From positions 13,937-77,936 of the forward strand of contig CALYAX010000007.1 of the NCBI GenBank assembly GCA_944393665.1: a DNA stretch of 64,000 nt, in the 5' to 3' direction. Positions within the stretch are counted from its first letter, which is position 1. Each line of letters begins with the position of its first letter. The DNA comes from an uncultured Alphaproteobacteria bacterium. GTDB taxonomy: Bacteria > Pseudomonadota > Alphaproteobacteria > RF32 > CAG-239. Positions 3,799-23,695 of this stretch are shown here, piece by piece. Both the position numbers and the translations under genes were made by a program. The notes below the pieces were generated by a model. It did not search any database, had not been told where the DNA came from, and saw nothing but the letters and a program-made list of their open reading frames with translations.

Positions 3799-4455
3799 TC
3801 AGTGATAGGTCCGGATTAAACCGCTGAGAATCCCCTGAACTTTAACGCGCCCTGCTTCCAGCCGCCGCGGCTGATAAGCCTCATTTTTGGGGATAAGCAC
3901 CACCTCGGGTCCTTCTTTGCGCAGTTCTTTCAATGTGGCCTCGCATTCATCAACCAGCGCCACAACAATATCGCCGTTATTGGCGTAATCAGCTTTTTTA
4001 ATAATGACGGTATCTCCGTCCATAATACCAATCCCGGTCATGGAATCTCCCTCAATCGTGAGGGCGTAATAGCGGCCGCGGCTGACCATATCAAAAGGAA
4101 CCGGAAATTTTTCGGTTTCATTGGCAATGGCCTCTATCGGCGTTCCCGCGGCAATTTTTCCGTACAGGGGAATTTCAACCATGCCGTTATGAATGGCCTC
4201 CTCACGCTTTTTTTCTTCTTCCACAATAGAACTGGGTTTAAGTTTGGGCAGGCGGACAACCTCAAGGGCGCGGGCTTTATGAGGAAGTTTTTTCAAGAAA
4301 TTGCGCTCGACCAGCGCCTCAATGAGAGCGTGAATACCTGATTTTGACTTGACGCCGACGGCCTCTTTCATTTCATCAAACGAAGGGCAGCAGCCGGTTT
4401 CACGGAGAACTTTGTTGATGTACATCAGCAGGTTATATTGTTTTTCTGTCAGCAT
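3799..4455 (-). CDS. lexA: LexA SOS repressor (S24 peptidase)
   Basis: N-terminal wHTH 'MLTEKQYNLLMYINKVLRETGCCPSFDEM' and C-terminal 'GDSMTG...GDIVVALVDECEATLKELR...VKVQGILSGLIRTY'. This is the canonical LexA length and Ser/Lys dyad context. Confidence 0.9.
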   Translation of the reverse strand: MLTEKQYNLLMYINKVLRETGCCPSFDEMKEAVGVKSKSGIHALIEALVERNFLKKLPHKARALEVVRLPKLKPSSIVEEEKKREEAIHNGMVEIPLYGKIAAGTPIEAIANETEKFPVPFDMVSRGRYYALTIEGDSMTGIGIMDGDTVIIKKADYANNGDIVVALVDECEATLKELRKEGPEVVLIPKNEAYQPRRLEAGRVKVQGILSGLIRTYH

Positions 4456-4489
4456 CGGTGCGGCTCCTTATTTTATTCAGCTTGTAAAT

Positions 4490-4504
4490 GTTCTACTTTA
4501 GTTC
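4490..4504. promoter_or_regulatory. Alphaproteobacterial-type LexA box GTTC-N7-GTTC (GTTCtactttaGTTC) in the lexA/lysS divergent region
   Basis: An exact direct-repeat GTTC N7 GTTC lies 35 bp upstream of the lexA start codon. This matches the established SOS operator of Alphaproteobacteria. Confidence 0.6.
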
Positions 4505-7697: not shown

Positions 7698-7772
7698 GGT
7701 CCCATCGTCTAATGGTTAGGACACCACCCTTTCACGGTGGTAATATGGGTTCGAATCCCGTTGGGATCACCA
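7698..7772 (+). tRNA. tRNA-Glu (anticodon UUC)
   Basis: The cloverleaf can be drawn by hand. Acceptor stem GGTCCCA/TGGGATC, anticodon loop CTTTCAC, T-arm GGTTCGAATCC, and the 3' end ACCA is encoded. A terminator hairpin follows at 7781-7807. Confidence 0.85.
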
Positions 7773-7979
7773 ATCGCAATACCCTCAGTTTTTGAGGGTA
7801 TTTTTTTGTTTAAAGACCTGATGTAATCGTACGGTTTTCTAAGTGTATAAGAGATTTTGCGGTCTTGTAATTTCAAGTTCGAAAGTAAAAGGTGCAAAAT
7901 CTCTCTTTTTGTTTCTACTTTCGAACTCTGGAAGATTTGGTACGCATTATTACCCAAGGAAAGTATTGTGGCGACTGCG
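7767..7979. repeat. Direct repeat copy A (213 bp). It starts with the last 6 nt of tRNA-Glu (TCACCA) plus the tRNA terminator, and is about 90% identical to copy B.
   Basis: Visual alignment of 7767-7979 with 10590-10801, for example the shared 'gtttaaagacctgatgtaatcgtacggtt', 'cttgtaatttcaagtt[c/t]gaaagtaaaaggt', 'ctactttcgaactctggaagatttggtacgcattattacccaaggaaagtattgtggcgactgcg'. Confidence 0.8.
7781..7807 (+). terminator. Rho-independent terminator after tRNA-Glu
   Basis: 'ccctca gtttt tgaggg' followed by a T9 run. Confidence 0.6.
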
Positions 7980-8048
7980 TGTAGCGCGCAAAATGGTTCT
8001 GGATTTATTGCAAAATGGTTCTGGGTCGGTTTTAAAGTCTAGGTTTTT

Positions 8049-8150
8049 GTAAGAAGAAAGATGGATTTACATAACTGGGATTCCGATATATCCCGGTAAA
8101 TCTCGGTTAATCCCAGTTATCCAGAACTATCTTTCTTCTTACACTTTTCG
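8049..8150. repeat. Long imperfect palindrome (about 34-bp arms, about 30-nt centre) in an ORF-free AT-rich stretch
   Basis: Left arm 'gtaagaagaaagatggatttacataactgggatt'. The right arm's reverse complement is 'gtaagaagaaagatagttctggataactgggatt'. The central part 'ccgatatatcccggtaaatctcgg' is itself partly palindromic. Confidence 0.6.
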
Positions 8151-8533
8151 CCATTCTGATGTTTAGTTATGATTTCATTCTTAATACTGTTGGAGAATTT
8201 TGAAGCGTGCATAGAGTTTTTCTTAATATTTACATTGAATAGCTAAAAATGAACTTATTATATAGAATTATTGGCTATTAGCTGAAAAGCTTTACTAATA
8301 AAAGATTTTTCAGATCCATTTTTAGCATATATTGCTGTTTTATTAGTTTCTAGATTGCAATTATGAGTCTTATTTTAATTGGCCCTATATTGACAGCCTA
8401 AATCCTAAATTAAAAGTCATATTCTTAACCTTTCTAATATAAAAGGACATCAAAACGAATACATTTTTCATTAATTAATGTATGGGTTTCCATAATATAC
8501 AACTAGATAATGTTATCAAGAAAAATAAAATAA

Positions 8534-9073
8534 TTAGGTAATTAGCTTATTATAAACTTGTTCTAACAATAGAAAATATACAGATTGACATTTTTCTAAT
8601 TCGCTATCTTTTACAATAGTACCAGCGATAGGAATATCAATTTCAACGATAAAATAATTATCCAAATAACGAACAATATCTAAAAATTGATATAAATATT
8701 CCTTAGTTATAAATTCTTGGTCTGTTAGAAAAAAATCAAAAAAACTATGTGCACATATATTTCTTATTTTTCTAGCCTTTTCTATTATGTCAATTTGGTC
8801 GCTTTTCAAGCAATAGAACTCGAATCCATATTCAAATACACCACCACAACGACTACAATTATTTTTATATTTACTGCTTACCTTTTGGTAAGGCTTGCAA
8901 TTATCAATCAGTTCTATGCTGAAAAAATCTTTTAATTTCTCTGTCAGCATAATTTTTGAATATTCGTATAAAAGCATATGTAATGTTGAAAATATTATTT
9001 GTTCTTTTAATGTTGATGTATCTTCAGACAAGAGTTTCTCCAATTTTTCATTTATACTATCGTAGGTATGCAT
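8534..9073 (-). CDS. Hypothetical protein with a HEPN-like Rx4H motif (Abi_2/AbiD-like abortive-infection candidate)
   Basis: 'EKARKIRNICAHSF' matches the HEPN R-x4-6-H signature. The protein is 179 aa, AT-rich, and located on the island. Confidence 0.3.
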   Translation of the reverse strand: MHTYDSINEKLEKLLSEDTSTLKEQIIFSTLHMLLYEYSKIMLTEKLKDFFSIELIDNCKPYQKVSSKYKNNCSRCGGVFEYGFEFYCLKSDQIDIIEKARKIRNICAHSFFDFFLTDQEFITKEYLYQFLDIVRYLDNYFIVEIDIPIAGTIVKDSELEKCQSVYFLLLEQVYNKLIT

Positions 9074-9169
9074 GTGTTTCAGACCTTTTTACATATAATT
9101 AATTTAAGATATTGTATGTAGTTAATTCTGAGAATACAATATCTTTATTGTAATGATGAGGATTCTAAA

Positions 9170-9790
9170 ATGGATATTAAAGAAATACATGACCAGCAAA
9201 TGTTTCATAAAGAAAATTTAATAAATGTTGAAGAGAATCAACTTTTACAGCATGTAATGGATTTCGCTAAAATGGGACTAAAAGGGATTTTCATACTAAA
9301 TGGAACGGCAGCAATATCTCTATTAACCTTATTTACACACATCATTCTTATAGAAAAATATGATATTGCGCATGGAATTTTCTGGGCAACAATTACTTTT
9401 GCTGTTGGCGCAGCCCTATCTTCATTAAGTATCTTTCTGGCATGGTATGCCCAAGGAAAATTTCAAGATACGGCCTATTATGCTAATCTAATCGAAATTG
9501 CTCGGATTAGAACTTCTCATAGTAAGGACGATAAATTAGATTACATAAAGAAAATGCACATCAAAGAAATATCTATTGATGAAAAAAATGATAAGTTTTT
9601 TAAGAGCTTAAAAATATATCAGGAAGAAAATAATAAGTATATTGATGAACAAATGAAAAAGGAAAGCTCATCAAGGCTAAAAGGAAACTTTACTCAAGGA
9701 TTTGTTGTATTTATAATTTTTCTAGCATTCGCTGCATTCGTCTATGGCATCTTTCTTACTTATGATTCTTTAGAGTGTGTTATAAAATGA
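9170..9790 (+). CDS. Hypothetical membrane protein (2-3 TM helices)
   Basis: Hydrophobic segments 'GIFILNGTAAISLLTLFTHIILI', 'IFWATITFAVGAALSSLSIFLAWY' and 'FVVFIIFLAFAAFVYGIFL'. It overlaps the next ORF by 16 nt. Confidence 0.4.
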   Translation: MDIKEIHDQQMFHKENLINVEENQLLQHVMDFAKMGLKGIFILNGTAAISLLTLFTHIILIEKYDIAHGIFWATITFAVGAALSSLSIFLAWYAQGKFQDTAYYANLIEIARIRTSHSKDDKLDYIKKMHIKEISIDEKNDKFFKSLKIYQEENNKYIDEQMKKESSSRLKGNFTQGFVVFIIFLAFAAFVYGIFLTYDSLECVIK

Positions 9791-10470
9791 TTTATTCCAA
9801 TGCCGATATTAAATTTGAGAATAGATATAGTAGTATTTTCAAGGCCCAGATAGAAATTCATAAAAAAGGTTTGGGAGAAGCTTTTTACAATGAAAAATTT
9901 CAATATTATGAAAAAGTTTTATACAATACTGATGTTATATTTGATAAAATATCTTTACTGGAAAAAAAAGCATTTAATAAAAACTTATATAAACCTTTTA
10001 AATACATAAATATTAAAGGTTTGTATCATGTTCATCATTTTCAGCCACTCAATATGGCAAAAAATTGCAAAAAAATATTCAACGCAAAAGCTAAAAATTA
10101 TTCAATGAATGTTGAACAATATGAAGAGTGCATATTCAGTGTATTATATTTATATAATCGCATGATTAAGAATTTATCTGAAAATGAAGCATATGAAAAA
10201 GCTCTGGGTTATTTAACAAGAAATAGGATCGATGACTGTTATATTGAAGCGTGCGACAAAAAGATACTAACTGGAGATTGGCTTGTCTTATTGCGTAAGG
10301 ATGATGTAAATTACTATTTAACATTAGCTAGACATGAAGAACCTCAAGATATGATTTTCAAACGTGTATTTATAGCAATTGAAGAATTAATATTTGGTAG
10401 AAAGCATGGCTTTGATATTAAGAATGTTGAAGCGGTTAAAAAGCCCTTAGAAACGGAGCTTTGGGATTAA
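9775..10470 (+). CDS. Hypothetical protein (231 aa)
   Basis: Long ORF in the low-GC island, apparently translationally coupled to the preceding membrane protein. No recognisable motif. Confidence 0.35.
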   Translation: MCYKMIYSNADIKFENRYSSIFKAQIEIHKKGLGEAFYNEKFQYYEKVLYNTDVIFDKISLLEKKAFNKNLYKPFKYINIKGLYHVHHFQPLNMAKNCKKIFNAKAKNYSMNVEQYEECIFSVLYLYNRMIKNLSENEAYEKALGYLTRNRIDDCYIEACDKKILTGDWLVLLRKDDVNYYLTLARHEEPQDMIFKRVFIAIEELIFGRKHGFDIKNVEAVKKPLETELWD

Positions 10471-10589
10471 TATTTACTTAATAGTTAGGTATACCGAAAA
10501 AAGAGGTTCGAAATTTTATTGCAACCTACATTGCATTAATGAGACTTAAAAATGTATAAAATCGCATTAGTCCGTACAATTTATTCGGT

Positions 10590-10801
10590 TCACCAATCAC
10601 AACACCTTCCTTTTTGGAGGGTGTTTTTTGTTTAAAGACCTGATGTAATCGTACGGTTTCCTTAGGGTATACGAAATTTTACTGTCTTGTAATTTCAAGT
10701 TTGAAAGTAAAAGGTTCAAAATCTCTCTTTTGTTTTCTACTTTCGAACTCTGGAAGATTTGGTACGCATTATTACCCAAGGAAAGTATTGTGGCGACTGC
10801 G
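10590..10801. repeat. Direct repeat copy B (212 bp). It begins with a tRNA 3'-end-like TCACCAATCACAA and a degenerate terminator hairpin.
   Basis: See copy A. 'ttcaccaatcacaacaccttcctttttggagggtgttttttgtttaaagacctgatgtaatcgtacggtt...'. Confidence 0.8.
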
Positions 10802-10971
10802 ATTGAAAACTTTTCATCGGCTTTAGTCAACAGTTCCGACCTTCCTTCGAGTTTGTACTGTTCTTTTTTTATCTCCTCACTCATATCACGGTATTCTTCC
10901 GGCGTGATTTTCCTTTTATATAACAGTGACCATTGCAACTTGGTTTTTGACAAGATTTTTGTAGATAACAC
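10597..10971 (-). CDS. Repeat-associated hypothetical protein (124 aa). Its C-terminal 70 aa are encoded inside repeat B, and a truncated near-identical reading frame exists in repeat A.
   Basis: The ORF extends from unique sequence into the repeat. The copy-A frame (7709-7957) lacks the N-terminal 42 aa and runs into the tRNA, so it is likely non-functional. Confidence 0.3.
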   Translation of the reverse strand: MLSTKILSKTKLQWSLLYKRKITPEEYRDMSEEIKKEQYKLEGRSELLTKADEKFSIAVATILSLGNNAYQIFQSSKVENKREILNLLLSNLKLQDSKISYTLRKPYDYIRSLNKKHPPKRKVL

Positions 10972-11371
10972 AGCTTAGGTTTCTGATTTTAAAATTTCAA
11001 TCAATACAAAATTTTGGAGAACTTATAGATGTGATATAATAAAAAACTTAGATCGAGAAAATAATGAGGAAAGAATAATTGGTTATAATATAGTATTGCT
11101 TTGCACGATATCGTTTTTTTGCAAGCATATTATCCAATTATTAAGTTAATTTTATATTTCGAACTGGCTGAACTAATTAATAAAAGGTAAAATTTACTAT
11201 TCTTATGAAAGCCCTTTAACTTTATCGGGAAATAAACAAAAAATAAACAAAAAAGACATTTTCTATTTTTTATTCTTGAAAGTTAAAGAAACTTATTATA
11301 TATTATCATCGTATTAAATTAATTACAATGTAGATATTCTAAAAATGAAATAATTTAAAATTTTTATTGAG

Positions 11372-12577
11372 ATGGACAAAAGTGAAAAATTGGCACGGAT
11401 TGAAAAAATCCTGTCTCGTGGTGTAATTAAGAATATTATGCCATCTGAAGAAGAATTCAAAGCACGTTTGTTATCCGATGAGTCTATGCGTTTTTACATA
11501 GGTGCTGACCCAACTAGTAATTCATTACATTTGAGTCATGCAAAGAACTTCATGCTTTTAGAGGAGTTTAGGCAACTCGGGCATAAAGTTTTCGTTCTTT
11601 TCGGAGATTTAACCGCTTGTATCGGAGACCCTAGTGACCGGAATTCTGCTCGTGCAAGACTGACTAGAGAACAGGCTCGGAAAAATGTTGAAGATTGGGT
11701 TCGTCAAATTCGCCCCATAATTAACTTTGATGATCTTGAAAATCCTGCCGAAGTTGTTCTTAACAGTACGTGGTTTGATAAAATGTCAGTTACGAATTTA
11801 ATCGACCTGCTATCCAATTCCACAGTGCAAAGAATGCTTGAAAGGGATATGTTCCAGAAACGTCTCAGCGAGAACAGGCCTATCCATTTGCATGAGTTTA
11901 TCTACCCCATGTTTCAGGGATTTGATAGCGTCGCATTGGATGTAGATGTAGAAATTTGTGGTTTAGACCAGACATTTAATGCCCTTATGGGAAGAACTCT
12001 TGTCAAACGCTTTAAAGACAAGGAAAAGTTCGTTGTTTGTGTTAATTTGATGGAAAACCCTGTTACTGGTGAATTGATGTCAAAATCAAATGGTACAGGG
12101 GTTTTCCTTAACATTGATGCACAAACCATGTTCGGTCAAATCATGGCACTACCGGATGAAATGATTAAGCTTATTCTTATTAACAATACCCGCGTTTCTT
12201 TAGAAGAAATAGAGGCGTTGGATATTAAGAATCACCCTCGAGATGCTAAAATCTTTACAGCGACAGAAGTTGTCAGAATTTTCCATGGCCAAAAAGCAGC
12301 AAATAATGCGAAACAGACTTTTTTAGAGACATTCTCTAATAAGACGTTTCCCGCAGATGCTCCGGTTATTGAAATTGAGACCCCTGAAATTCAGGTGTTG
12401 GAACTTCTGAAAAAATGCAAAAATGAGTCGAATTCTGAATTGAGACGGCTTGTTAAGCAGGGTGCTGTAAGTGCTGATGGCAAAAAAATTACCGATGAAA
12501 CCTCAATTCTTGAGGTCAAACAAGAGCTTCAGCTCAAAGTTGGTAAACGAGGATTTTTCTTAATAAGAAGTAAGTAA
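11372..12577 (+). CDS. tyrS: Tyrosyl-tRNA synthetase paralog (class I; HIGH-like 'HLSH', KMSKS-like 'LMSKS', C-terminal S4 domain)
   Basis: 'FYIGADPTSNSLHLSHAKNFMLLEEFRQLGHKVFVLFGDLTACIGDPS' aligns with the E. coli TyrRS 'GFDPTADSLHLGHL...[22 protein letters not shown]'. 'ELMSKSNGTGVFL' corresponds to KFGKT/KMSKS. C-terminal 'LVKQGAVSADGKKITDE' is S4-like. Confidence 0.8.
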   Translation: MDKSEKLARIEKILSRGVIKNIMPSEEEFKARLLSDESMRFYIGADPTSNSLHLSHAKNFMLLEEFRQLGHKVFVLFGDLTACIGDPSDRNSARARLTREQARKNVEDWVRQIRPIINFDDLENPAEVVLNSTWFDKMSVTNLIDLLSNSTVQRMLERDMFQKRLSENRPIHLHEFIYPMFQGFDSVALDVDVEICGLDQTFNALMGRTLVKRFKDKEKFVVCVNLMENPVTGELMSKSNGTGVFLNIDAQTMFGQIMALPDEMIKLILINNTRVSLEEIEALDIKNHPRDAKIFTATEVVRIFHGQKAANNAKQTFLETFSNKTFPADAPVIEIETPEIQVLELLKKCKNESNSELRRLVKQGAVSADGKKITDETSILEVKQELQLKVGKRGFFLIRSK

Positions 12578-12590
12578 ATTATTCACTATA

Positions 12591-12633
12591 AAAGAAAAGG
12601 TTAGAGTTTTATTCTCTAGCCTTTTCTTTTTAT
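12591..12633 (+). terminator. Rho-independent terminator after the TyrRS-like gene (16-bp stem)
   Basis: 'aaagaaaaggttagag-ttttatt-ctctagccttttcttt' followed by a T-rich stretch. Confidence 0.6.
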
Positions 12634-12641
12634 AAAAAATA

Positions 12642-12670
12642 TTGACAAAATTTTAAAGAAGCTTATAAGT
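12642..12670 (+). promoter_or_regulatory. Putative sigma70 promoter (TTGACA, 16-17 nt, TATAAG) for the sulfotransferase-to-HAD operon
   Basis: 'aaaaatATTGACAaaattttaaagaagctTATAAGtt'. A nearly identical -35 context 'aaaaatattgacaa' recurs at 16337 upstream of the TrpRS-like gene. Confidence 0.4.
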
Positions 12671-12701
12671 TAATTATTCATTAAAAATTCAGGAGAGTAG
12701 T

Positions 12702-13586
12702 ATGGGAAAAGATATTATCCCTATTTTTGTATTAGGTACTCCTAGATCTGGAACTACTGTTATTGGAAAATATATTTCAACCCACAAAGATATCTTGGAC
12801 ATGGGAGAATATGCCGGTTTTGATTTTACTTATCGTGTTGCTCCCAATTTAATGAAAACATTACCGTCTACTTTTAAGGATGAGTATTTATTTAGTCTTC
12901 AAAATCATGCAACACAATTCGCTCACGAAATGGCAATAAAAAATAATTGCCATTATTTTTGTGATTCTACTCCATGGACATTATTAGCTATGGATAAAAT
13001 TAAAGACAAATTGCCCGGTGCAAAATTTGTTTTATGTATACGAGAACCTCAAGGTGTGATACAGAGCCTGGAACGCAGCTTCAAAAGCGGGAGGAAATGG
13101 GCCGGAGAAAATAATCAGGAGCGTTTTAGACTTTGGAAAGATTTTTATGAAAAAGTAAAATTTATTCCTCAAAAAGATCTAATGGTATTCAATTATAGTA
13201 ATTTCTGCAAAAAACCTGAGGAAGAACTCTCTCTATTAGATCAGCAGTTATTTGCGCATGGTATTACTCCAACTTCGCTAGATAAAACGATTTTTGCAGA
13301 AACTCATGCCACTGTTGTATCTGATCATCGGCCTGTTAGTGCCAGAGTTGATAATAACGGTCATATTACATTATTGGCACGGGAAGATTGGAACAATGAA
13401 AAATGGACCATTCAAGATGAAATGATGTTGCAAACTGACAATGGATATAAGGAAATTTTAAATTTTTTAAAGAATTTACCGTTAAAAAATAGTTTACACC
13501 CTGCTGTTATTTATAAAAATAAATATCTTTCTTCTTTAGCTCAAAATGTTAATATGGTAACAAATTTGAAAGATAATATTCGGTAA
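12702..13586 (+). CDS. PAPS-dependent sulfotransferase family protein
   Basis: N-terminal 5'-PSB-like P-loop 'VLGTPRSGTTVIGKYI'. Size and architecture are typical of the Sulfotransfer family. Confidence 0.5.
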   Translation: MGKDIIPIFVLGTPRSGTTVIGKYISTHKDILDMGEYAGFDFTYRVAPNLMKTLPSTFKDEYLFSLQNHATQFAHEMAIKNNCHYFCDSTPWTLLAMDKIKDKLPGAKFVLCIREPQGVIQSLERSFKSGRKWAGENNQERFRLWKDFYEKVKFIPQKDLMVFNYSNFCKKPEEELSLLDQQLFAHGITPTSLDKTIFAETHATVVSDHRPVSARVDNNGHITLLAREDWNNEKWTIQDEMMLQTDNGYKEILNFLKNLPLKNSLHPAVIYKNKYLSSLAQNVNMVTNLKDNIR

Positions 13587-13619
13587 AGAAAGTACATATA
13601 TTTAAGCTAGAGTTTAATT

Positions 13620-14690
13620 ATGAAAAATTATGAGCTACTACTGCACCATATTCAAAATGGTGTTGTGTTATCAAGATTAGAAATTTTTAATGCTTTGAAG
13701 ACATTGTACCATGAGACAGACAACCAGCAAGCAAAATTTTGCATGGGAATGATTCTTTATGGGTTATCCGTAAGAGTTCCTACGCCTGAAGAACTTTGGG
13801 GCTTAGTTGATTTTGTTGAATATCTAGAACCATCTCTCCTAAAAAATAAGAGAAAACTTCCAATTTGTGAACCTGTCATTGGTTTGGCGGGAAGTGGCAA
13901 AAAAGGTATAAAAACCTTTAATATATCAACTATCTCTGCAATTGTTGCAAGTGCGGCGGGGTGCTTTATTTCTAAAGCCGTATCCAAATCAGTTTCTTCT
14001 GTGACCGGCTCTTCTGATATATTAAGTGCTGCCGGAGTTAACATAGATATTTCATTTGAAAAAATGATAAAAATTTTTACAGAAACAGGGCTTGGTATTT
14101 TTCAAATCGAAAAGACCATTCCTAAATTTGACAATTTTTATGGTGGAATATTTTTAGTCCCTCATGCACTATCGTATGCGCTTGCTGCTATTGTTAACCC
14201 TATTTTATGTGATAGCATTATTTATGGTTTTGCTGGAAAAAATATTGAAATTTCCAGTAAAATTTTGCATCAGATAGGATTAAAAAAAGGTGTGGTTGTT
14301 TCATCAACAGATGATAAAGTCTTATATATTGATGAGCTCACTCCATTGCAATATAATAATATTTCTTATATTGAGACACAAAAAACCTCTAAAAATATTA
14401 ATCTAACAAACATATTTGGATGTAAAAGATGTTCTCCTGATGAATTGAAAAGCAGCATAGATATAAATGGTCAATTAGATATTTTTAATTTATGTCTTTC
14501 AGGAAAGGCATCTCAAGCTCAAAATAATGCTATTGCAATGAATACAGCTTTTATGATTACCGAAGCTGGGATTACAGACAATCTAAAAACAGCTTTTGAA
14601 ATGGCTCATGATATTATTATGTCGGGAAAGGCATTAAAACAATTTAATCATTTCAAAGAAATGGTCAATGATTTGGGAGAGGACAGATGA
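13620..14690 (+). CDS. Divergent anthranilate phosphoribosyltransferase (TrpD)/glycosyltransferase family 3 homolog with an altered PRPP-binding loop
   Basis: 'GLAGSGKKGIKTFNISTISAIVASAAGCFISKAVSKSVSSVTGSSDILSAAGVNIDI' compared with the E. coli TrpD '[54 protein letters not shown]'. GTGGDG and KHGNR are replaced, suggesting a changed substrate. Confidence 0.6.
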   Translation: MKNYELLLHHIQNGVVLSRLEIFNALKTLYHETDNQQAKFCMGMILYGLSVRVPTPEELWGLVDFVEYLEPSLLKNKRKLPICEPVIGLAGSGKKGIKTFNISTISAIVASAAGCFISKAVSKSVSSVTGSSDILSAAGVNIDISFEKMIKIFTETGLGIFQIEKTIPKFDNFYGGIFLVPHALSYALAAIVNPILCDSIIYGFAGKNIEISSKILHQIGLKKGVVVSSTDDKVLYIDELTPLQYNNISYIETQKTSKNINLTNIFGCKRCSPDELKSSIDINGQLDIFNLCLSGKASQAQNNAIAMNTAFMITEAGITDNLKTAFEMAHDIIMSGKALKQFNHFKEMVNDLGEDR

Positions 14691-15685
14691 ATAATAGTGT
14701 AATTCTATTTGATATAAAAAAGAATTGCTGGAAAGAATATTCTCGTCCTCTGCCAGAGTTAACTACCGACGAAAGCCTCGTTAAGGTAGAATTTGCCGGA
14801 TTGTGCGGCAGTGACATGCACAGAATAAAAGCACCTACAAGCCATGAAACTCAGGTTGTCATGGGACATGAAATAATTGGTACTGTTAAAAAATCTGATA
14901 AAGAAACATTAATAGGAAAGAAAGTCGTCATTAACCCAATTGCTAATTGTAGAAAATGCTCTTCTTGCAATGATGGCTTAACACAATTCTGTTCAAATAG
15001 TAGAAATATAGGAAAAAATATCGATGGAGCCTTTGCTAAATATTTAAAAGTTCCCAACAAAAGTCTGTATATTGTTCCAGCGAATTTTCAAGCTGAGTTG
15101 GGGGTTTTAGTTGATGGAGCGGCCGTGATCATAAATGGTATAAAAAAGCTGTCAAAAAAACCCCATTCTGTTTTAGTTATTGGGGATGGAACCGTTGGCT
15201 GCCTATCCATTGCGGTGTTGAAAGCCTTATATCCGGAAATAAAAATTTCGTTACGCGGGCATCATAATACTGATTATGTAAATCAAGTATATAGCACATC
15301 AGCCCCCCAAGAAAATGAAAAGTTTGATTTAACAATCGAAACTGTAGGACGTGCACAATCAGATACTTTAAACCAATGTGTTGAATATGCTTCTATTGGG
15401 GGTCAAATTTTAATAATGGGGGTTTATCCTCCTAACTTTTCTTTAGATTTTAATGCCAGAACCGCTTTTTATAAGGAATTAGCAATATATGGTGTTAATT
15501 CGTTTTGTGTTACAAAAAAAAGAGACGATTTTAGAGAAGCATTAGCTTTAATTGATTCCCATCCGGAGTTTTTTGCTCCATTAATCACTCACAAATTTTT
15601 ATTATCCGATTTCAATCTTGGTATTGCAAAAATGTTGGATAAAAGTAAAGAAGCTGTCATAAAAGTTATTTATACTACTGCTTAA
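14687..15685 (+). CDS. Zn-dependent medium-chain alcohol dehydrogenase (threonine/sorbitol dehydrogenase-like)
   Basis: 'GLCGSDMH', 'GHEIIGTV', the structural Zn Cys cluster 'CRKCSSCNDGLTQFC', and Rossmann 'VLVIGDGTVG'. A 4-nt ATGA overlap with the upstream gene. Confidence 0.75.
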   Translation: MNNSVILFDIKKNCWKEYSRPLPELTTDESLVKVEFAGLCGSDMHRIKAPTSHETQVVMGHEIIGTVKKSDKETLIGKKVVINPIANCRKCSSCNDGLTQFCSNSRNIGKNIDGAFAKYLKVPNKSLYIVPANFQAELGVLVDGAAVIINGIKKLSKKPHSVLVIGDGTVGCLSIAVLKALYPEIKISLRGHHNTDYVNQVYSTSAPQENEKFDLTIETVGRAQSDTLNQCVEYASIGGQILIMGVYPPNFSLDFNARTAFYKELAIYGVNSFCVTKKRDDFREALALIDSHPEFFAPLITHKFLLSDFNLGIAKMLDKSKEAVIKVIYTTA

Positions 15686-15692
15686 GGATTTC

Positions 15693-16310
15693 ATGAAAGA
15701 CATCAATATAAAAAATTATCAGCTTGTTTTATTGGACTGGGATGGTACATTAGTCAGAACTCGAGAGAATGTTATTTATGCAATGCAACCCGTTTCTCAA
15801 AAATATAGAAAACTAGACTGGTTTGAATTAGATAAAATTAGAAATCACAATTTATCTTTAGAAGACAATTTTGAAAATTTCTTTCATGAAAATAAAGATA
15901 TTGCATACGATTTATATCTAAAAACTTACATATCTGGTATAAAAAATAATGTGCATAAAATTACCGGTGCGGATAAATTACTTAAAATTCTAGATACCTT
16001 ATCCATAAAAAAAGCTATAGTTACCAGCAAAGACAGAATACTTTGGGAAATAGAAAAGAACACATTTAATACATCTTTTGATTTTTCTGTATGTAAAGAT
16101 GAATGTGATCACAATAAACCCCTGCCTGATCCAATACTTAAGGCAATAGCCCATTTTTCAATTTCCAAAAGTAACGTGTTGATGATTGGAGACAGCCGAC
16201 ACGATTATATAGCGGCTAAAAAAGCAAAAATCGATTCTATCATTATTGGAGAAGAAATATACGCTACTTTTGATAATTTAGACACACTAATAAAAAAAAT
16301 ATTCTTTTAG
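15693..16310 (+). CDS. HAD-superfamily hydrolase (phosphatase)
   Basis: Motif I 'LVLLDWDGTLV'. Motifs 'VTSK' and 'IGDSRHD' later in the protein. 8 nt after the ADH stop. Confidence 0.65.
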   Translation: MKDINIKNYQLVLLDWDGTLVRTRENVIYAMQPVSQKYRKLDWFELDKIRNHNLSLEDNFENFFHENKDIAYDLYLKTYISGIKNNVHKITGADKLLKILDTLSIKKAIVTSKDRILWEIEKNTFNTSFDFSVCKDECDHNKPLPDPILKAIAHFSISKSNVLMIGDSRHDYIAAKKAKIDSIIIGEEIYATFDNLDTLIKKIFF

Positions 16311-16349
16311 ACCCTTTAAACATCGAAAACTTATTTTAGCTAAAAAATA

Positions 16350-16392
16350 TTGACAATTTGACAAAATAAAATTAATGATTTACTAATAATAT
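16350..16392 (+). promoter_or_regulatory. Putative promoter upstream of the TrpRS-like gene (tandem TTGACA elements)
   Basis: 'aaaaatATTGACAatTTGACAaaataaaattaatgatttactaataat'. It shares the 14-mer 'aaaaatattgacaa' with the 12636 promoter. Confidence 0.3.
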
Positions 16393-16435
16393 TAGGTGCG
16401 AGAATAACAATTCGCTTTTAAACGGAACTAAAAAT

Positions 16436-17557
16436 ATGTCTAAAGATATTTCATCAAACTTAATCTTTAATGATGAATATTATAAAGAAGTCATTGATAA
16501 ATATGGCTACAATGCTTTTGATTTCAAACCTATTGATTTTGATATTTCTCATTTGGATAAAAAGGCACTCAATCAACGGTGGTTATGTCATTTTGATGGA
16601 GAACCTTTTTCTCAAGCAATAAATAATAAAGAAAAAGCAATCGTCACAACTGGAGTTGGATTATCCGGGGCTCCTCACATGGGAACAATTTCCCAAATGA
16701 TGCGTGCAATATTTTTACAGGAACAAGGATTTAATGTTCAATTCGTCTTGGGGGACTTAGATTCATATAATGCTCGCTCTCAACCATATCCTGTTGTAAA
16801 AGCCAGGGCTGAACAATATAAAGAATTCATTACCAACCTTGGCTTTTCAAAGGAAAAAGGAATTTTACGCTCACAAGATAATAATCCTGAAGTCTGCAGA
16901 ACGGCTTATTTGATTTCTCGATGCCTGACAGATGAAGATTTCCTTAATGCAGAAGAAGACTTATCGGAATTATATCAAAAACAAGGTGCTTATCCAGGTA
17001 TTAAATATCCGGTTAAACAGGCTATCAATCTAATGGTGGCTGATTTTATTCATCTTGGAATGGCAGATAAGAATAAAAGTGTTATGGTAATGCTTGGTTT
17101 GGAAGAACATCTCTATGTCAGAATTGCAAAGGATGTTATAAAAAGGATGGAAATGCCTTTTCATCTCGGAGCAATGTATTCCAAAATTATTAAAGGCTTC
17201 AATGGTTTTCCTAAAATGAGTAAAAGTATTCCCGGATCCTCAATAAACGTTGATATGAATATTGATCAAATAAGACATAAACTTCAACATGAAGAAGGGC
17301 ATTACAGCAAACCTGATGATTCTGTTGCCTATCAAATGATGTGTGCTGTCTCAAATTATACCCCTAGAGATCTAAATATTCTTCACGAAAAATGTTCTGT
17401 CGGCGGTCGGTATTGGAGTGCGGCAAAAGATGAATATGCAGAATATCTTGACTCTATTTTTAAAAAATGGCCTAAGGATAAGGTATTCGATCGGAGTGCA
17501 ACTATGAATCCTATAGATATGTTTATTATGAAAAATGGCTGCGGCAGAAAACTCTAA
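16436..17557 (+). CDS. trpS: Tryptophanyl-tRNA synthetase paralog (class I, KMSKS present)
   Basis: 'TGVGLSGAPHMGTISQMM' resembles the TrpRS 'GxQPSGELHLGNY'. 'GLEEHLYVRIAKDV' resembles 'GEDQKQHLELSRDIA'. Exact 'FPKMSKSIPGS'. Confidence 0.7.
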   Translation: MSKDISSNLIFNDEYYKEVIDKYGYNAFDFKPIDFDISHLDKKALNQRWLCHFDGEPFSQAINNKEKAIVTTGVGLSGAPHMGTISQMMRAIFLQEQGFNVQFVLGDLDSYNARSQPYPVVKARAEQYKEFITNLGFSKEKGILRSQDNNPEVCRTAYLISRCLTDEDFLNAEEDLSELYQKQGAYPGIKYPVKQAINLMVADFIHLGMADKNKSVMVMLGLEEHLYVRIAKDVIKRMEMPFHLGAMYSKIIKGFNGFPKMSKSIPGSSINVDMNIDQIRHKLQHEEGHYSKPDDSVAYQMMCAVSNYTPRDLNILHEKCSVGGRYWSAAKDEYAEYLDSIFKKWPKDKVFDRSATMNPIDMFIMKNGCGRKL

Positions 17558-17958
17558 AATTTAATTTTAGCCAAGACTTCATCACTATTATATTCTTTTT
17601 TTTCAAGCTTAGGCCATGTATCTAACCCATCATTGTCAAAACGAGGGAAAATATGGATATGAAAATGGAATACTGACTGCTGAGCAGATTTACCGCTGGC
17701 ATGTAATATATTAATACCTGTAGCACCTAACCGTTCTTTTAAATGCAAACTAATTTTTTTTGCAAACTTGATAATATGAGTAAGCTCTTCTTCTGGAATA
17801 TCAAAAATATTTTCATAATGCTTATTAGGAACGATAAGCAAATGACCATAGACCTCCATTTTTCTGGGTAGAAAACAAGATAAGATATTATCTTGATAAA
17901 TTATTTTTCCCGGAAGTTCTTTGGCACAAATCTTACAAAATACACACTCCATGAGCAA
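17554..17958 (-). CDS. HIT-family (histidine triad) nucleotide phosphoramidase/hydrolase
   Basis: N-terminal 'CVFCKI' and the histidine triad 'HFHIHIFPR'. It is convergent with the TrpRS-like gene, sharing 4 nt with it. Confidence 0.75.
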   Translation of the reverse strand: MLMECVFCKICAKELPGKIIYQDNILSCFLPRKMEVYGHLLIVPNKHYENIFDIPEEELTHIIKFAKKISLHLKERLGATGINILHASGKSAQQSVFHFHIHIFPRFDNDGLDTWPKLEKKEYNSDEVLAKIKF

Positions 17959-18706
17959 CTCCTTATTGGAAAATTATATTATTTGTAGCTTAATATAATA
18001 AAAAATATATGTCAAACAGGTAGTTAATGAGTAAACTATATAAAAAATACCAATCCAAGTTAAATTTACTGGAATTTTCAATACAAATTATTTCAAAAGA
18101 AAATAAAAAAAGATTTTTGAAGGATATAATTATATCGCTAATGTTGCTTTAGATGAATTTCCTCGGATATCTTTTCAACAAGGCAGTACTTTGATGACAC
18201 CGCATATTCACGGAATATTTTCATAGTTGTCAAAACGGATTTGTGTGGAAATATATTCTTTTATAATACTCTCAGGTAGCATTTTTTTATCCTTATCTAA
18301 AATTTTAATTTTCATAAAATTTAGAGCGACCGAAATTTTAAGGTACAAAAAAGCATCTTAAAACTTCAAACAAAAGTCCTAAGACGCTAGTTTTGGTCCG
18401 GATATTTTTTTAACAGACTTTACGCTAAGCACTAGCAACGCACGAGAGTCCCGAGGAAGAGCCCTCGGAAAATTCCAGGCACCTTGTTTCCAAGATACAA
18501 GGTTATTGTGCCTTATTTTTGTAAAATTATCAAGTTTATATTTGTTGTGATTAAAACTTATAGTTTTTTGTTTGTTGGATTGTCAGAGAATGAGGAACTT
18601 TAATTTTTCAGTACGAATTTATCGTTTTTTCGAAACAACACACCAGACATCAAGAAAACGAGTTTTTTGTTGCTTCAAAAAAATTACTGATATTTGTTAC
18701 ATTGAG

Positions 18707-19825
18707 CTAAAAAGGAAGTTCATCATAGATTTGTTTAGCTTCTAAATATTCTGTTTGTATATTGCTAATAAATGTTTCACCAAATGTTTCTACGAGCTGA
18801 TTTAATACATTGAATTTTCCATATTGCTCATGTAATTTATAAAGCGTCGAATACGGGTATTTATCAATATTTAAATTTTTTATACTTGAGATGAATAGGC
18901 TAGACATAGTATCATTCATAAAAATATCTGTTAGACTAGAGGAAAATGATAGATTTAGTGAATAAATTTTATAATACTCTTTATGGTCAATATATTCAAA
19001 AATATATTGCATATATAAGGGCAATAAATCATTATTATTTTTAATTTCGTAGCATTCCATATTTTTGTTGTCGCACCAGTCTTTCAAGCTTGTTAATAAT
19101 ATTTTATTAATGCGTTTTTGAGAGAGTTTAGATATATCTTTCCAGTGTTCATTTCTTAAAATATATATTAGCAGAGCAATTTCTTTTAAATTGTTAGATT
19201 TTTCTAGTTTTGTATCAGCACTTTTAATATAAATGTATTGTTCATTTTGAGGGAGACTATTAAATATTTTATATGTAAAATTAAATACATTAGGATTGAT
19301 ACTATCATCACATAAAGAAATTAATGTATCTAATAATTTTTTTTCTGGAATTCTATTTAGAATTTCATTTATATATTCTTCATCGTCGACATAATATAAA
19401 TCATTAAGTTTTTGATGAATATCATTTATAGAATAAAAAGCTTCTCCTTTTATAAGTGCGGCTAGCGCATAATTAATCATTATTAGCTGTAAATCACAGA
19501 CCTCTTTAGACGGGGTTATAATATTGTGGTGAACTGGATTTCTGTACATATAATATAAACTACAAATGTAGCTCATCATTCCTTGTTGGATATTTTTATC
19601 TGTTTCCGTTTTTAGTGGGTTCATTTTTATTAAAGGTTTGTTTAGTGAAAATGCTTCTTGAACTAGTTTAGCTCCATCTTTGTCTAATCCAGACTTTTCA
19701 CGCAATTTATTGGTTAAATAAAGCATTGCATTGCTTAATACGTCTCGGTAGTTTTCTATTTCATAATTTTTTTTTATGAAATTATATAAATCATTATCAA
19801 TATTAATTTCCGGCCTGAATTTCAT
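18707..19825 (-). CDS. Hypothetical protein (372 aa), very AT-rich
   Basis: Long ORF with no recognisable catalytic motif. Confidence 0.35.
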   Translation of the reverse strand: MKFRPEINIDNDLYNFIKKNYEIENYRDVLSNAMLYLTNKLREKSGLDKDGAKLVQEAFSLNKPLIKMNPLKTETDKNIQQGMMSYICSLYYMYRNPVHHNIITPSKEVCDLQLIMINYALAALIKGEAFYSINDIHQKLNDLYYVDDEEYINEILNRIPEKKLLDTLISLCDDSINPNVFNFTYKIFNSLPQNEQYIYIKSADTKLEKSNNLKEIALLIYILRNEHWKDISKLSQKRINKILLTSLKDWCDNKNMECYEIKNNNDLLPLYMQYIFEYIDHKEYYKIYSLNLSFSSSLTDIFMNDTMSSLFISSIKNLNIDKYPYSTLYKLHEQYGKFNVLNQLVETFGETFISNIQTEYLEAKQIYDELPF

Positions 19826-19847
19826 TATTTTTTCCTAATTGGATACA

Positions 19848-20204
19848 TTATTTGCTATTCCACCATGCTAAAGCAGCTAATCCGGCTAATGAGATAGATT
19901 GAATTATATTTCCTAAGATAGATTCCTTTGCTCTATAATTATATTTAATAGTTTTTAAAATGCTATCTGTCCCGATTAATGCACAAATGAAAATTATACC
20001 CATAAAAATAAATGGAGGCATTATCTGTTTTATATTTTCTTTGTTTTGATATAAAGAAATCATATCTAAACAATAAGATATAAGCCATATAACAATTAAC
20101 CAAATAACAGCTAAAATGATTGTGGCTGATACTTTTGAAATGTTGTTTGCTAAAAGATTAGTTTCTGTTTTAGGTTCTTGTTCTGTCTTTGTTTCTATGT
20201 CCAC
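19848..20204 (-). CDS. Small hypothetical membrane protein (3 TM)
   Basis: 'ATIILAVIWLIVIWLISY', 'FIFMGIIFICALIG', 'IIQSISLAGLAALAWW'. Confidence 0.35.
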   Translation of the reverse strand: MDIETKTEQEPKTETNLLANNISKVSATIILAVIWLIVIWLISYCLDMISLYQNKENIKQIMPPFIFMGIIFICALIGTDSILKTIKYNYRAKESILGNIIQSISLAGLAALAWWNSK

Positions 20205-20700
20205 TAGAGATATCCTTTCAATTTTTTTAATCTATATTACACCACTTTGACTTACAAGATAAAATGTAATTATATTTTTTTATCTTTGGGATAAATATTA
20301 GAGTTAATAAAATGGTGATGAATGATATATCAAATTAATTTTCTATAATTTCTTGATATTTGTGATTATTTTGTAAAAATGTCTTAGCTAATCGGTATGT
20401 GTACATAGTTGCCTTGTAATATTCAGGAGTAAATAATAGTTCGAAATTCGTTGCGAAACTGTCACCAATGCAAACGGCGGCCTACAAAATGGCTGCTTTT
20501 TCTTTATTTTCCAAAGCTTTCAGCGAGTTCGAGTGTTTGATTTTCAAAAATTGCGTTTGGGGAAGTTTTTCTGAACTTTGGCGCTAAGGTTTCTTTGTTT
20601 TTCAATGGATTAATTGATTTGTTTGGTTTTGAGATTCTGGGATATTTAAAACTTGTCAATTAAAATAATTTATTGTTTAATTTCATTATAGGAGATTACA

Positions 20701-21177
20701 ATGATGAAAATAAGGGTTCCTTTGGCAAAAGATGTTCCTGCAATCACAGAAGTAATTCAATCAGCATATAAAGTTTGTTATCGTGGATATGTGCCTGATG
20801 AATATTTGAATAATTTATGTATTACTGCAGATATTTTACAAAAATGGCATGATTATTTACAAAAATATGAATGCTATGTGGCAGAAAAAAATAAACAGAT
20901 TGTAGCATTTCTAATGGCAATGGAAGATAACTCAGATACTTTTGAAATTGGGGTATTATACGTAAAACCAGAGTACCAAAAAATGGGAATAGGCACTTTA
21001 TTAGTTGATTATTTGTGTAAAATAAAGAAAAAAAACGATTATAAAACCTGCAAAGTTTGGACCATAAAAAATGGTCCTTCAGTTGGTTTTTATAATAAGG
21101 TAGGATTTACAATTACAAAATATGAAAAACCTTGGAAATTTGACATTCCAATTATAATGATGTTAAAAATTTTATAA
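20701..21177 (+). CDS. GNAT-family N-acetyltransferase
   Basis: Motif A-like 'YVKPEYQKMGIGTLLVDYL', 158 aa. It is flanked by short intergenic repeats. Confidence 0.55.
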   Translation: MMKIRVPLAKDVPAITEVIQSAYKVCYRGYVPDEYLNNLCITADILQKWHDYLQKYECYVAEKNKQIVAFLMAMEDNSDTFEIGVLYVKPEYQKMGIGTLLVDYLCKIKKKNDYKTCKVWTIKNGPSVGFYNKVGFTITKYEKPWKFDIPIIMMLKIL

Positions 21178-21393
21178 AAGCTCGTAAACTGTGAGTTAAG
21201 AAGCACCAATACAAACAGTACTCTTTTCAGGGCGCTGTTTTGCTTTTGTAATCAGGGCTTTCAGCGAGTTCGAAAGTTGTAAATACAAAAATTGCATTTT
21301 TGGAAATTTTACGAGCTCACCTTGACAAAATTACAATAAAATCAAGCACTAAACTATACATTTGAGTATTTTTATTGACAAAAAAATATAGAT

Positions 21394-22380: not shown

Positions 22381-22708
22381 TAAATTTTAGCTCATAATTT
22401 GCTTGCTAAGCATCATCAATACAAACAACAGATCTAAAAACAGTTTGTTATTAGCATTTACACTAAATGTTTATTTCCCGGTTCTTTATTTTCTTCTGAA
22501 ATAAGATATCGGTAATATTGTTTTATTTAAAAACAGTGCCAGAGGCCGGGATACATATCAGCAAAGCAAGTCATACAAACCTTGTGGATATCTTGATTTC
22601 GGAAGATTGAAAAGCAGGCTTTAGTTTCCAACATCTTTAGTATTGCATAAAAGATATCAGATAAAAATATCCGGACTTATACAAAACTATTTATCTTTTT
22701 GTAACTTT

Positions 22709-23695
22709 CTAAGCTGGCAGATACAACTTACGTAGTGGCAGAAGAACCTTTCCTTCTGCTCTAAAATTATCGTAATGCACACCTATCAGCTCGGTCAGGA
22801 TATCTAAATCGACCAAGAATACGGGGGTCTTAGCCCTTTCTGCTTCATATCTAGCTTCTTTAGTAAAACCACCCGTGCTGACGTAAATACAGCGATCTCC
22901 GACCTGTCTTCCACCGAGGAAAGTTCTAATTTCAGGAGCTCCCATTTGTCCTTTGCGATGTTTAACCTCAACAAAAATACGTGGCTCTTCCAGGCCCAAA
23001 CCATCTCTGGAGGCAAAAACGTCAATACCCCGGTCTGCCCCTTTAGGACTTCTACGAGCAATATAACCCATTGCATTCAATATTTCTTTGACAAGTTCTT
23101 CCATATCATCTGGAGATAAATTTAATATTCGATCTTTTAATGTTTCTGTTGAATTTTCAAGAAGTTCATTAGATTGAAGTTCCAGCTCTTCAGCAACTTC
23201 CTGTTCATTTTTGGCAATTTCTTTTTTGTTTTTAAGGAGGCTCAAAATTTCAACTTCAGCATCGTGAGAAAGACGAAACACTGTTGACAGACTGCCCAAA
23301 GAATTTTTAGAAGTACTGGACAAATCATCTCTGGATATTGTTCTAGCATTCCATTCAACTTTACGCAGATTGGGATATTCCTTAATGAGTTTATTATTAT
23401 AATAGTAATCGCTGACAACTTCGCCAATGTAATACAAGCGGTTACTTTTATCATATGTTATAATGTAATCACCCTTTTTTATGAAATTAACAAAAGAATC
23501 AATGATGCCAATCCACTGGAATATAGCTTTTTCATTAGGGTATTTTTCCTGTACAAGTTCCTTAATTTGATTTCTGCTTTTTCCAGCCAAATCACCTAAA
23601 GCCTCCCAGCCAAGAGCCGCAACTTTATTTTTTAAGAATAAAGGAAGTAATTCTCCTCCCTGAGAACGAACCATCCAGATATTCACCATGATCAA
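22709..23695 (-). CDS. Mrr-family restriction endonuclease (Mrr_N plus Mrr_cat PD-(D/E)xK)
   Basis: C-terminal 'GADRGIDVFASRD...IFVEVKHRKGQMGAPEIRTFLG...YVSTGGFTKEA', typical of Mrr_cat. The N-terminal 110 aa are Mrr_N-like. Confidence 0.6.
   Translation of the reverse strand: MIMVNIWMVRSQGGELLPLFLKNKVAALGWEALGDLAGKSRNQIKELVQEKYPNEKAIFQWIGIIDSFVNFIKKGDYIITYDKSNRLYYIGEVVSDYYYNNKLIKEYPNLRKVEWNARTISRDDLSSTSKNSLGSLSTVFRLSHDAEVEILSLLKNKKEIAKNEQEVAEELELQSNELLENSTETLKDRILNLSPDDMEELVKEILNAMGYIARRSPKGADRGIDVFASRDGLGLEEPRIFVEVKHRKGQMGAPEIRTFLGGRQVGDRCIYVSTGGFTKEARYEAERAKTPVFLVDLDILTELIGVHYDNFRAEGKVLLPLRKLYLPA

Follow-up and report, generated by a model that had tools for sequence, protein, structure and literature searches.

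The closest described analogue of the locus that we analyze here is the ssrA islands of Dehalococcoides, in which the large serine recombinase (LSR) DsiB has a tRNA-like gene as its target, at the 3' end, a serine recombinase of ~540 amino acids (aa) is encoded first after attL on the reverse strand, and low-GC islands with repeats of the target end, some of them integrase-less, stand in tandem, an arrangement for which the authors invoke accretion (McMurdie et al. 2011, PMC3146451). Each of these features has a counterpart in a 64,000-nucleotide (nt) stretch of DNA from an uncultured alphaproteobacterium (GenBank assembly GCA_944393665.1, contig CALYAX010000007.1; hereafter the window), in which two copies of a 213-bp direct repeat, copy A at the end of a tRNA-Glu(UUC) gene and copy B farther downstream, stand in a low-GC island. 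We consider it likely that these repeats are the tRNA-side ends of two dead LSR elements that inserted at the last bases of tRNA-Glu, which agrees with an original prediction, made from the sequence alone, that the repeat is the scar of site-specific integration at the tRNA-Glu 3' end.

The likeness to DsiB is drawn from organization and not from sequence, Dehalococcoides belonging to a different phylum from the window's host, and the Dehalococcoides islands have a tmRNA target and a 20-bp repeat, whereas the sites here are tRNA-Glu or tRNA-Lys genes with an 8-bp core at the CCA end. SCC and SCCmec elements (staphylococcal cassette chromosomes; CcrAB or CcrC LSRs, 3' end of rlmH/orfX) share with this locus serial insertion at one site, tandem arrays, short site repeats and decayed members without recombinase genes (summarized in PMC3146451), but their target codes for protein, their Ccr genes are internal rather than terminal, and a two-recombinase system is common. 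Tyrosine-integrase tRNA islands of the Islander type (PMC4383910) also target a tRNA 3' end, preserve the tRNA, carry an integrase at the edge and form tandem arrays; in those islands, however, a tRNA fragment (typically at least 15 nt, usually 15-60 nt or more) is displaced by a tyrosine integrase, whereas here the enzyme is a serine recombinase and only TCACCAAT, with 6 nt of the tRNA, is repeated. A serine-family recombinase targets a tRNA 3' end in the phiRSM filamentous phages of Ralstonia, whose attB is the 13-nt 3' end of tRNA-Ser (PMC3816273); in contrast to the present family, that enzyme is of the small resolvase/invertase type, without Recombinase and zinc-ribbon domains, and works for a filamentous phage with a 13-nt core. 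In streptococci, finally, related elements pile up at one att site and decayed members keep att sites while losing the integrase, as here, yet the intact integrative and mobilizable elements (IMEs) in such one-site accretions are all reported to encode tyrosine integrases, only some decayed ones encode serine integrases, and serine-integrase IMEs mostly disrupt protein genes (PMC5357655, PMC5704250).

The window contains one tRNA gene, the tRNA-Glu(UUC) found by both ARAGORN and Rfam, and GC content drops from ~48% to ~30% exactly there, rising again near 23.8 kb. By repeat search and MAFFT alignment the copies span 7761/7767-7979 and 10584/10590-10801, 2.8 kb apart, and they are 91.1% identical over 213 nt (BLAST) with one 1-nt indel in a T-run, so that the two direct copies first described at 7767-7979 and 10590-10801 are confirmed. 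Identity is uneven, at 77% over the first ~50-53 nt, which comprise the tRNA end and the hairpin, but 92% over the other 191 nt, close to the earlier estimate of ~190 bp at ~90%. A 19-mer across the tRNA end and the downstream bases occurs twice in the window within 3 mismatches against 0.02 occurrences expected, and the repeat is far above the level of chance. An nhmmer profile of a 330-nt unit found no additional copies in the window, and Rfam found no RNA family in the repeat besides the tRNA. Copy B had been described as carrying a sequence like the tRNA 3' end; its tRNA likeness is confined to the 8-nt TCACCAAT and becomes weak beyond it (5/8 next bases), and by sequence its start is not a clear displaced tRNA fragment.

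That the window derives from a metagenome-assembled genome (MAG) of an uncultured bacterium, and that strain variants at this tRNA exist (as in locus L002), raises the question of an assembly chimera of such variants. We regard a chimera as scarcely credible: copies that are 9% diverged are unlikely to collapse or to be misjoined, and gene order is identical on all five contigs, up to 50-200 kb long, that encode the 124-aa product of copy B. Because these five contigs (5/5) have the same arrangement, it is not an assembly artefact.

What the repeats consist of emerges from a genome scan with one genome per species, which gave 14 loci, mostly in MAGs labelled as uncultured Alphaproteobacteria or proteobacteria. 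At half of them (7/14; L005, L006, L010-L013 and L016) the repeat sequence is the C-terminus of a 500-545-aa protein whose gene abuts tRNA-Glu (UUC or CUC) tail-to-tail. These full-length homologues possess Resolvase, Recombinase and Zn_ribbon_recom domains and an RRVST catalytic motif (in L005 and L013, PF00239, PF07508 and PF13408 with a phrog_95 integrase match), a domain content that identifies them as LSRs; the window itself holds C-terminal stumps only. Judged by such comparisons, full-length LSRs of the repeat-linked family (about 510-545 aa) adjoin tRNA-Glu or tRNA-Lys tail-to-tail in related uncultured gut Alphaproteobacteria, with the LSR gene next to attL on the reverse strand. The copy B reading frame aligns to full-length LSR residues ~407-512 with 86% amino-acid identity, its LSR homology reaching ~10932 and comprising about 110 LSR codons, while the part common to both copies stops at 10801; copy A aligns to residues ~452-512. 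Since the stumps align to the C-termini of LSRs that abut tRNA genes, we read the 213-bp repeat as a three-part element end. It opens with TCACCAAT, in which AT follows the tRNA's last 6 nt; next comes a terminator hairpin, and then, on the opposite strand, the 3' end of an integrase gene. The minus-strand frame is indeed open for 124 codons in copy B and cut at 7979 in copy A, as was first noted, but to call it intact in copy B goes too far, for it is the C-terminal stump of a ~520-aa gene.

The 124-aa open reading frame (ORF) and the three ORFs of the 2.6-kb module between the copies have no match in Pfam, NCBIfam, PADLOC or PHROG scans, and close database homologues of the 124-aa ORF are all short, ending in ...SLNKKxPSKxEGxAIG(D/E) and then running antisense into different tRNAs. 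A small-protein family, as stumps of 70-214 aa in a word-indexed protein search had suggested, was ruled out by the full-length genes of the genome scan. At all loci the integrase frame meets no stop codon in the terminator hairpin or in the tRNA read antisense, and gene callers therefore append tails such as AIGDPNGIRTHITTVKG, which disclose the neighboring tRNA but are probably not real protein.

A tyrosine integrase had been anticipated; instead, the family is one of LSRs, and no Phage_integrase match was found in the scanned ORFs, which comprise most, not all, of the island ORFs of at least 100 aa between 7.7 and 23.7 kb and ten large ORFs elsewhere in the window. Nor does the window match, in tblastn, the ~192-aa tyrosine-recombinase-like ORFs of L005-L018. 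No intact recombinase occurs among the window ORFs checked, and the elements should therefore be unable to move on their own; no candidate for a recombination directionality factor (RDF) emerged either. A viral contig collection did not contain the LSR. No small serine recombinase partner comparable to the Dehalococcoides DsiA lies beside the LSR in L005. In L008 (7718-9905), past the P arm, a second, unrelated 532-aa LSR is accompanied by a 162-aa small serine-recombinase-like ORF, which thus belongs with a different LSR.

Aligning the junctions of relatives on TCACCAAT separates the mobile from the resident sequence. The right side is always conserved, with core, hairpin and integrase end starting exactly at TCACCAAT, while to the left stand tRNA-Glu(UUC), tRNA-Glu(CUC), tRNA-Lys(UUU) or, in some relatives, unrelated AT-rich DNA. 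This pattern indicates that core, hairpin and integrase end form one movable unit, and the family, although widespread, is tightly tied to those three tRNA genes and is not a dispersed repeat without a tRNA connection. In L002 the upstream 4 kb are 99.8% identical to the window and shared up to ...TCACCAAT, after which the two diverge. Because TCACCAAT is the only stretch common to all family junctions, and because L002 diverges right after it, the crossover would have to lie within these 8 bp, at the encoded CCA end. L002 holds a different LSR-like gene at the same tRNA-Glu junction (3953-4504; C-terminus 32% identical), with a hairpin of its own, from which it appears that at least two serine-recombinase families use the tRNA-Glu site.

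Terminator-like hairpins with a T-run are intact in both copies, at 7778-7802 in A and 10601-10625 in B. Among 12 sequences the hairpin occurs as three alleles that differ by compensatory substitutions, with 2 pairs covarying and 0 broken; copy A carries the type-1 and copy B the type-2 allele, and both types are present elsewhere. The copy A hairpin had been taken for the native terminator of the tRNA, but the same hairpin goes with the element to tRNA-Lys and non-tRNA junctions, and the terminator is for this reason element-borne and, to judge by the covariation, under selection. The copy B hairpin had likewise been called degenerate, whereas it is an intact, different allele reached through compensatory changes.

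The two copies have separate histories. Relics in other species (L019-22, L026, L007, L006 and L028) match copy A at 96.2-96.7% identity, against 91.1% between copy A and copy B, while copy B is 95.3% identical to a tRNA-Lys-linked relic in L024/L025. The 54 codons present in both copies show 7.5 synonymous and 3.5 non-synonymous changes between A and B, a ratio of non-synonymous to synonymous rates (dN/dS) of 0.10, compared with 0.07-0.19 for pairs of intact genes. From this value we infer that the copies diverged as parts of working genes, which excludes duplication of a dead flank, and the copies are by these measures the ends of two related, separately evolved elements. The earlier suggestion that two related elements had accreted here is upheld in this respect, each copy being closer to other genomes than to its neighbor. 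Duplication of the tRNA-flanking segment in place, with later divergence, had been offered as an alternative and would account for two copies in direct orientation on one contig, 2.8 kb apart; it is very improbable given that each copy is nearer to other species' sequences than to the adjacent copy, that the compensatory differences between hairpin alleles are also found in other genomes, and that the changes are mostly synonymous, whereas in a dead fragment dN/dS would drift towards 1.

We sought right ends through the tRNA T-arm-like 12-mer TTCGAATCCCGT near TCACCAAT. In the tRNA the 12-mer stands 5 nt from the core, whereas in five P arms of two types its best match (7-9/12) stands at 10-nt spacing. 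The distal recognition motif of LSRs, that of the zinc-ribbon domain, lies 5 bp farther from the crossover in attP than in attB half-sites (PMC3783163), and because the 5-bp outward shift matches this geometry we propose that sites S3 and S4 (Table 1) are P arms and mark the right ends of elements. S3 is identical at 32/38 nt to the attR of L024, the locus in which the nearest relative of copy B forms the attL region. S4 is identical at 26-29/38 nt to the P arms of L008, L014, L007 and L026 copy 2, and it directly follows a GNAT gene (20701-21177), as does the P arm in L026; its 7/12 match at 10-nt spacing ties with that at another spacing. After S4 comes a hairpin like those that follow the attR sites of L015 and L026 (~78% and ~90% identical, respectively), which is probably the native tRNA-Glu terminator and occurs twice in the window. 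A possible third site, S5, is 74% identical to S4 over 39 nt and is without a clear 12-mer peak at 10-nt spacing. Two left ends and two to three right-end sites thus lie within 7.7-22.4 kb, as in tandem islands.

Left-end sites (S1 and S2) and right-end sites (S3 and S4) have only (T/G)CACCAAT in common, as is typical of LSR products, whose attL and attR share the crossover core only and gain no long direct repeat through integration. Since left and right ends share the core alone, the 213-bp repeat is explained as homology between two left ends. The first interpretation, in which the copies were attL and attR, does not survive this comparison: both represent the same end, and the P arms lie at S3 and S4. 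Its most developed form would make the copies the attL and attR of a single 2.6-kb non-autonomous module, mobilized in trans like a cis-mobilizable element (CIME). Direct repeats do flank a low-GC three-gene block, integrases of the family are present in related genomes, and Dehalococcoides is known to have islands that lie between att repeats yet lack an integrase (PMC3146451). Such a module is nevertheless improbable, as both copies consist of core, P' arm and integrase 3' end, no P arm precedes copy B while genuine ones lie at 20.4 and 21.2 kb, LSR attL and attR sites would share the core only, the module's left edge is a phage terminus (described below) and its right edge a non-canonical junction, and the module is present in 5/5 contigs with the 124-aa ORF, with no empty form among them.

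The truncation of copy A has a cause of its own. Copy A stops at 7979, where TGTAGCGCGCAAAATGG... begins at 7980, and ~100 nt of what appears to be the terminus of a Mu-like phage survive, including two copies of GCAAAATGGTTCTGG as 15-nt repeats; the consensus of the terminus is TGTAGCG(C/G)GCAAAATGG. In L019-L023 this terminus likewise borders LSR stumps, though at different positions, and its neighbors there encode a Mu-type transposase (rve/HTH_Tnp_Mu_1), Portal_Mu, Mu_F, Gp45-48 (baseplate) and a Dam methylase. A 5'-TG terminus, repeated end motifs of the transposase-binding type and adjacency to Mu-type genes all mark it as a Mu-like end, and by this evidence LSR gene A is cut at 7979/7980 by a Mu-like phage. 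No inverted copy of the end occurs in the window, which also lacks the phage's other end; in the relatives that other end falls beyond the loci covered. The distance from the phage right end to the CCA end of tRNA-Glu is 207 nt in the window, 270 nt in L023 (~10049) and 366 nt in L019-22 (L019 ~10047), always in the same orientation, and L019 and L023 belong to the same species (98.7% backbone identity) with different insertion points. This suggests either that the Mu-like phage prefers this spot as a target or that the way in which the loci were collected introduced a bias. Immediately downstream of the phage-end relic lies a 35-nt inverted repeat (8048-8082/8109-8143; 86% complementary, 26-nt loop), for which Rfam returns one weak and meaningless miRNA match.

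The anatomy of the repeats, the family membership of the stumps, the separate ancestry of the copies and, for the att-like sites, their positions and types are read directly from these alignments, and onto them we fit the following model. The tRNA-Glu(UUC) gene would be the landing site for a family of LSR integrative elements that carry the integrase gene at their extreme end, pointing at the tRNA, and an integrated element would read, in order, tRNA, 8-bp TCACCAAT, element-borne hairpin and integrase gene 3' end. The insertions would be catalyzed by the LSRs, with crossover inside TCACCAAT. Element A (type 1) would extend from a left end at 7767 to a probable right end at 21210, and element B (type 2) would occupy 10590-20469, copy B being paired with S3 and copy A with S4 because their lineage types match; the appearance of a long direct repeat would arise because both left ends carry the same homologous ~210 bp. 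We prefer a nested arrangement, in which element B entered a secondary attB-like site inside element A, the right half of which would resemble the hairpin region after S4. Such a secondary site is favored because the DNA to the left of copy B looks like neither a tRNA nor a P arm, and nesting would best describe the order of insertion events. A Mu-like phage would have inserted into gene A and later itself been deleted to ~100 bp, and gene B would have lost its first ~400 codons where a biosynthetic cluster now sits.

Several observations weigh against this model. The 5-bp offset is visible in the left half-sites only, the right half-sites showing no obvious offset, and the dyad symmetry of junctions and of the putative attP is no better than that of shuffled sequences. 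Right ends of intact elements were not found within the 6-kb flanks of the loci, no empty attB was found, and intact elements carry, besides the LSR, the ~192-aa tyrosine-recombinase-like ORF of the Phage_integrase family. The left flank of copy B, being neither a tRNA fragment nor a P arm, is not what insertion into attL or attR predicts and requires a pseudo-site or a later rearrangement. LSRs, moreover, do not normally recombine attP with attL or attR (PMC3783163), and arrays therefore need a pseudo-attB, homologous recombination or relaxed specificity. Finally, the right flanks of S3 and S4 (20470-20569 and 21211-21310) are 74% identical to each other over 73 nt, or ~110 nt with the hairpin.

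This last likeness would be expected if the flanks were the P' arms of two related old relics, as in serial accretion, where newcomers insert between the tRNA and the older element so that the oldest lies to the right, the youngest to the left, and junctions read P(new)-core-P'(old). This is how composite SCC islands and the ssrA islands of Dehalococcoides are built, the att-like sites S1-S5 form a corresponding array in which one gene each separates S3 from S4 and S4 from S5, and L026 contains a clear P-core-P' junction with a degenerate integrase stump. In L009 (1118-1422) an LSR stump retains a 21-nt tRNA-Glu 3' fragment ~190 nt from the real tRNA, the intervening ~190 nt opening with a long palindrome around CCAATAT, and a third kind of insertion appears to have displaced an older attL. 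The L026 junction and the displaced L009 fragment together indicate that pile-ups at these att sites recur in relatives. For the window itself, we nonetheless hold serial accretion to be a possible but rather unlikely course: copy B's left flank is not a P arm, the pairing of type 1 with type 1 and type 2 with type 2 fits nesting better, attP by attL recombination is disfavored for LSRs, and no derivation from an integrase can be detected in the sequences to the right of S3 and S4. The idea that these flanks are very old integrase stumps was dropped when the nhmmer profile of the 330-nt unit gave no match there.

Table 1. Features of the tRNA-Glu island; positions are those of the window.
Feature	Positions	Strand	Evidence or remark
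tRNA-Glu(UUC), intact	7698-7772	+	ARAGORN; Rfam tRNA 64.6 bits
Putative target B half-site: tRNA T-arm and acceptor 3' strand (TTCGAATCCCGT-TGGGA)	within 7698-7772	+	Half-site alignment
S1, core TCACCAAT: last 6 nt of tRNA (with encoded CCA) plus AT	7767-7774	+	Junction alignments, 20+ loci
Copy A (type 1 lineage): core, P' arm with hairpin, antisense last ~57 codons of LSR gene A (AVATILSLGNNAYQ...SLNKK)	7767-7979	+	
Putative right-end remnant of a Mu-like transposable prophage, starting TGTAGCGCGC	7980-8080	+	Two 15-nt repeats (7988-8002, 8010-8024)
Cargo of the 2.6-kb module, three ORFs	8534-10470		GC 27-28%
Orphan ORF	8534-9073	-	
ORF with long hydrophobic stretches, possibly a membrane protein	9170-9790	+	By eye; end overlaps start of next ORF
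231-aa protein, predicted RelE/ParE-type toxin fold with helical insertion	9775-10470	+	Unannotated family (~90 distant relatives)
S2, core TCACCAAT	10590-10597	+	Left flank ...TTTATTCGGT neither tRNA-like nor P-arm-like
Copy B (type 2 lineage): core, P' arm with hairpin, antisense 124-codon ORF (10597-10971)	10590-10971	+	
Element B cargo: TyrRS-like protein (401 aa), sulfotransferase, TrpD-like glycosyl transferase family 3, Zn-alcohol dehydrogenase, HAD hydrolase	11372-17958		
Element B cargo, further: divergent class-I Trp/Tyr-RS-like protein (373 aa), convergent HIT protein	within 11372-17958		
Relic of a 250-aa gene	18068-18241	+	In intact elements ~1.3 kb past the LSR gene, same order and orientation
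S3, putative right end of element B: type-2 P arm TTCGAAATTCGT-TGCGAAACTG and core TCACCAAT	20440-20469	+	Followed by a terminator-like hairpin
S4, probable right end of element A: type-1 P arm CTCGTAAACTGT-GAGTTAAGAA and core GCACCAAT	21181-21210	+	
S5, possible third, degenerate P-arm-like site CTCATAATTTGC-TTGCTAAGCA-TCATCAAT	22391-22420	+	Weak

The kind of scar described here is ordinary, whereas the enzyme family is unusual for a tRNA target. The elements may represent an undescribed LSR family of gut Alphaproteobacteria that inserts at the encoded CCA end of tRNA-Glu and tRNA-Lys, with TCACCAAT as core and the T-arm as the motif of the zinc-ribbon domain, a proposal that we advance tentatively. 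We found no LSR targeting tRNA-Glu or tRNA-Lys described in a literature coverage that is incomplete and so no proof of novelty, and tRNA is not mentioned in one large LSR survey. If the proposal holds, attB, attP, attL and attR could all be read directly from genomes, the family would clearly contradict the working rule that reserves tRNA genes as targets for tyrosine integrases, and it would provide an integrase that naturally targets an RNA gene of high conservation. The loci would then offer naturally occurring serine-integrase att sites whose target half-site consists of the tRNA T-arm and acceptor end and whose sequences show the 5-bp offset between attP and attB, which could interest those who study or engineer serine integrases, even though the window copies themselves are dead. 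Island-mapping tools that rely on tRNA fragments and tyrosine integrases would miss this class, because the repeated tRNA sequence amounts to only 6 nt and the enzyme is a serine integrase. A second, weaker novelty would be a Mu-like phage that lands repeatedly, in one orientation, 207-366 bp from tRNA-Glu. The 13-16-kb low-GC island would on this account hold the remains of integrative elements that accumulated at a single tRNA, with additional disruption by a transposable phage and with defence-like and biosynthetic cargo.

None of the three module ORFs encodes a recombinase, and a toxin or abortive-infection cassette would be a plausible reading of them. The orphan ORF shows, by eye only, a HEPN-like R-x4-H motif, and its single-sequence AlphaFold model is unusable (pLDDT 48). 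Downstream of copy B, the low-GC cargo cluster of element B stands where the 5' part of LSR gene B (its first ~400 codons) is missing, and its gene content looks like a small-molecule biosynthesis or self-resistance set. The relic of the 250-aa gene beyond it is 88-89% identical in DNA sequence to L005, L006 and L008 and is also supported by tblastn. Intact elements of the LSR family encode a DUF3768 protein together with the ~192-aa Phage_integrase ORF (L005 2189-2767, L026 12780-13364). Two further sets of genes in the island appear, from their matches, to be defence-like: a Hypoth_Ymh/HEPN-type protein (PD-Lambda-3_B match) with an adjoining small ORF that is hydrophobic by eye, at 18707-20204, and an Mrr-like nuclease at 22709-23695 that matches the PADLOC candidate PDC-S02 (1e-88).

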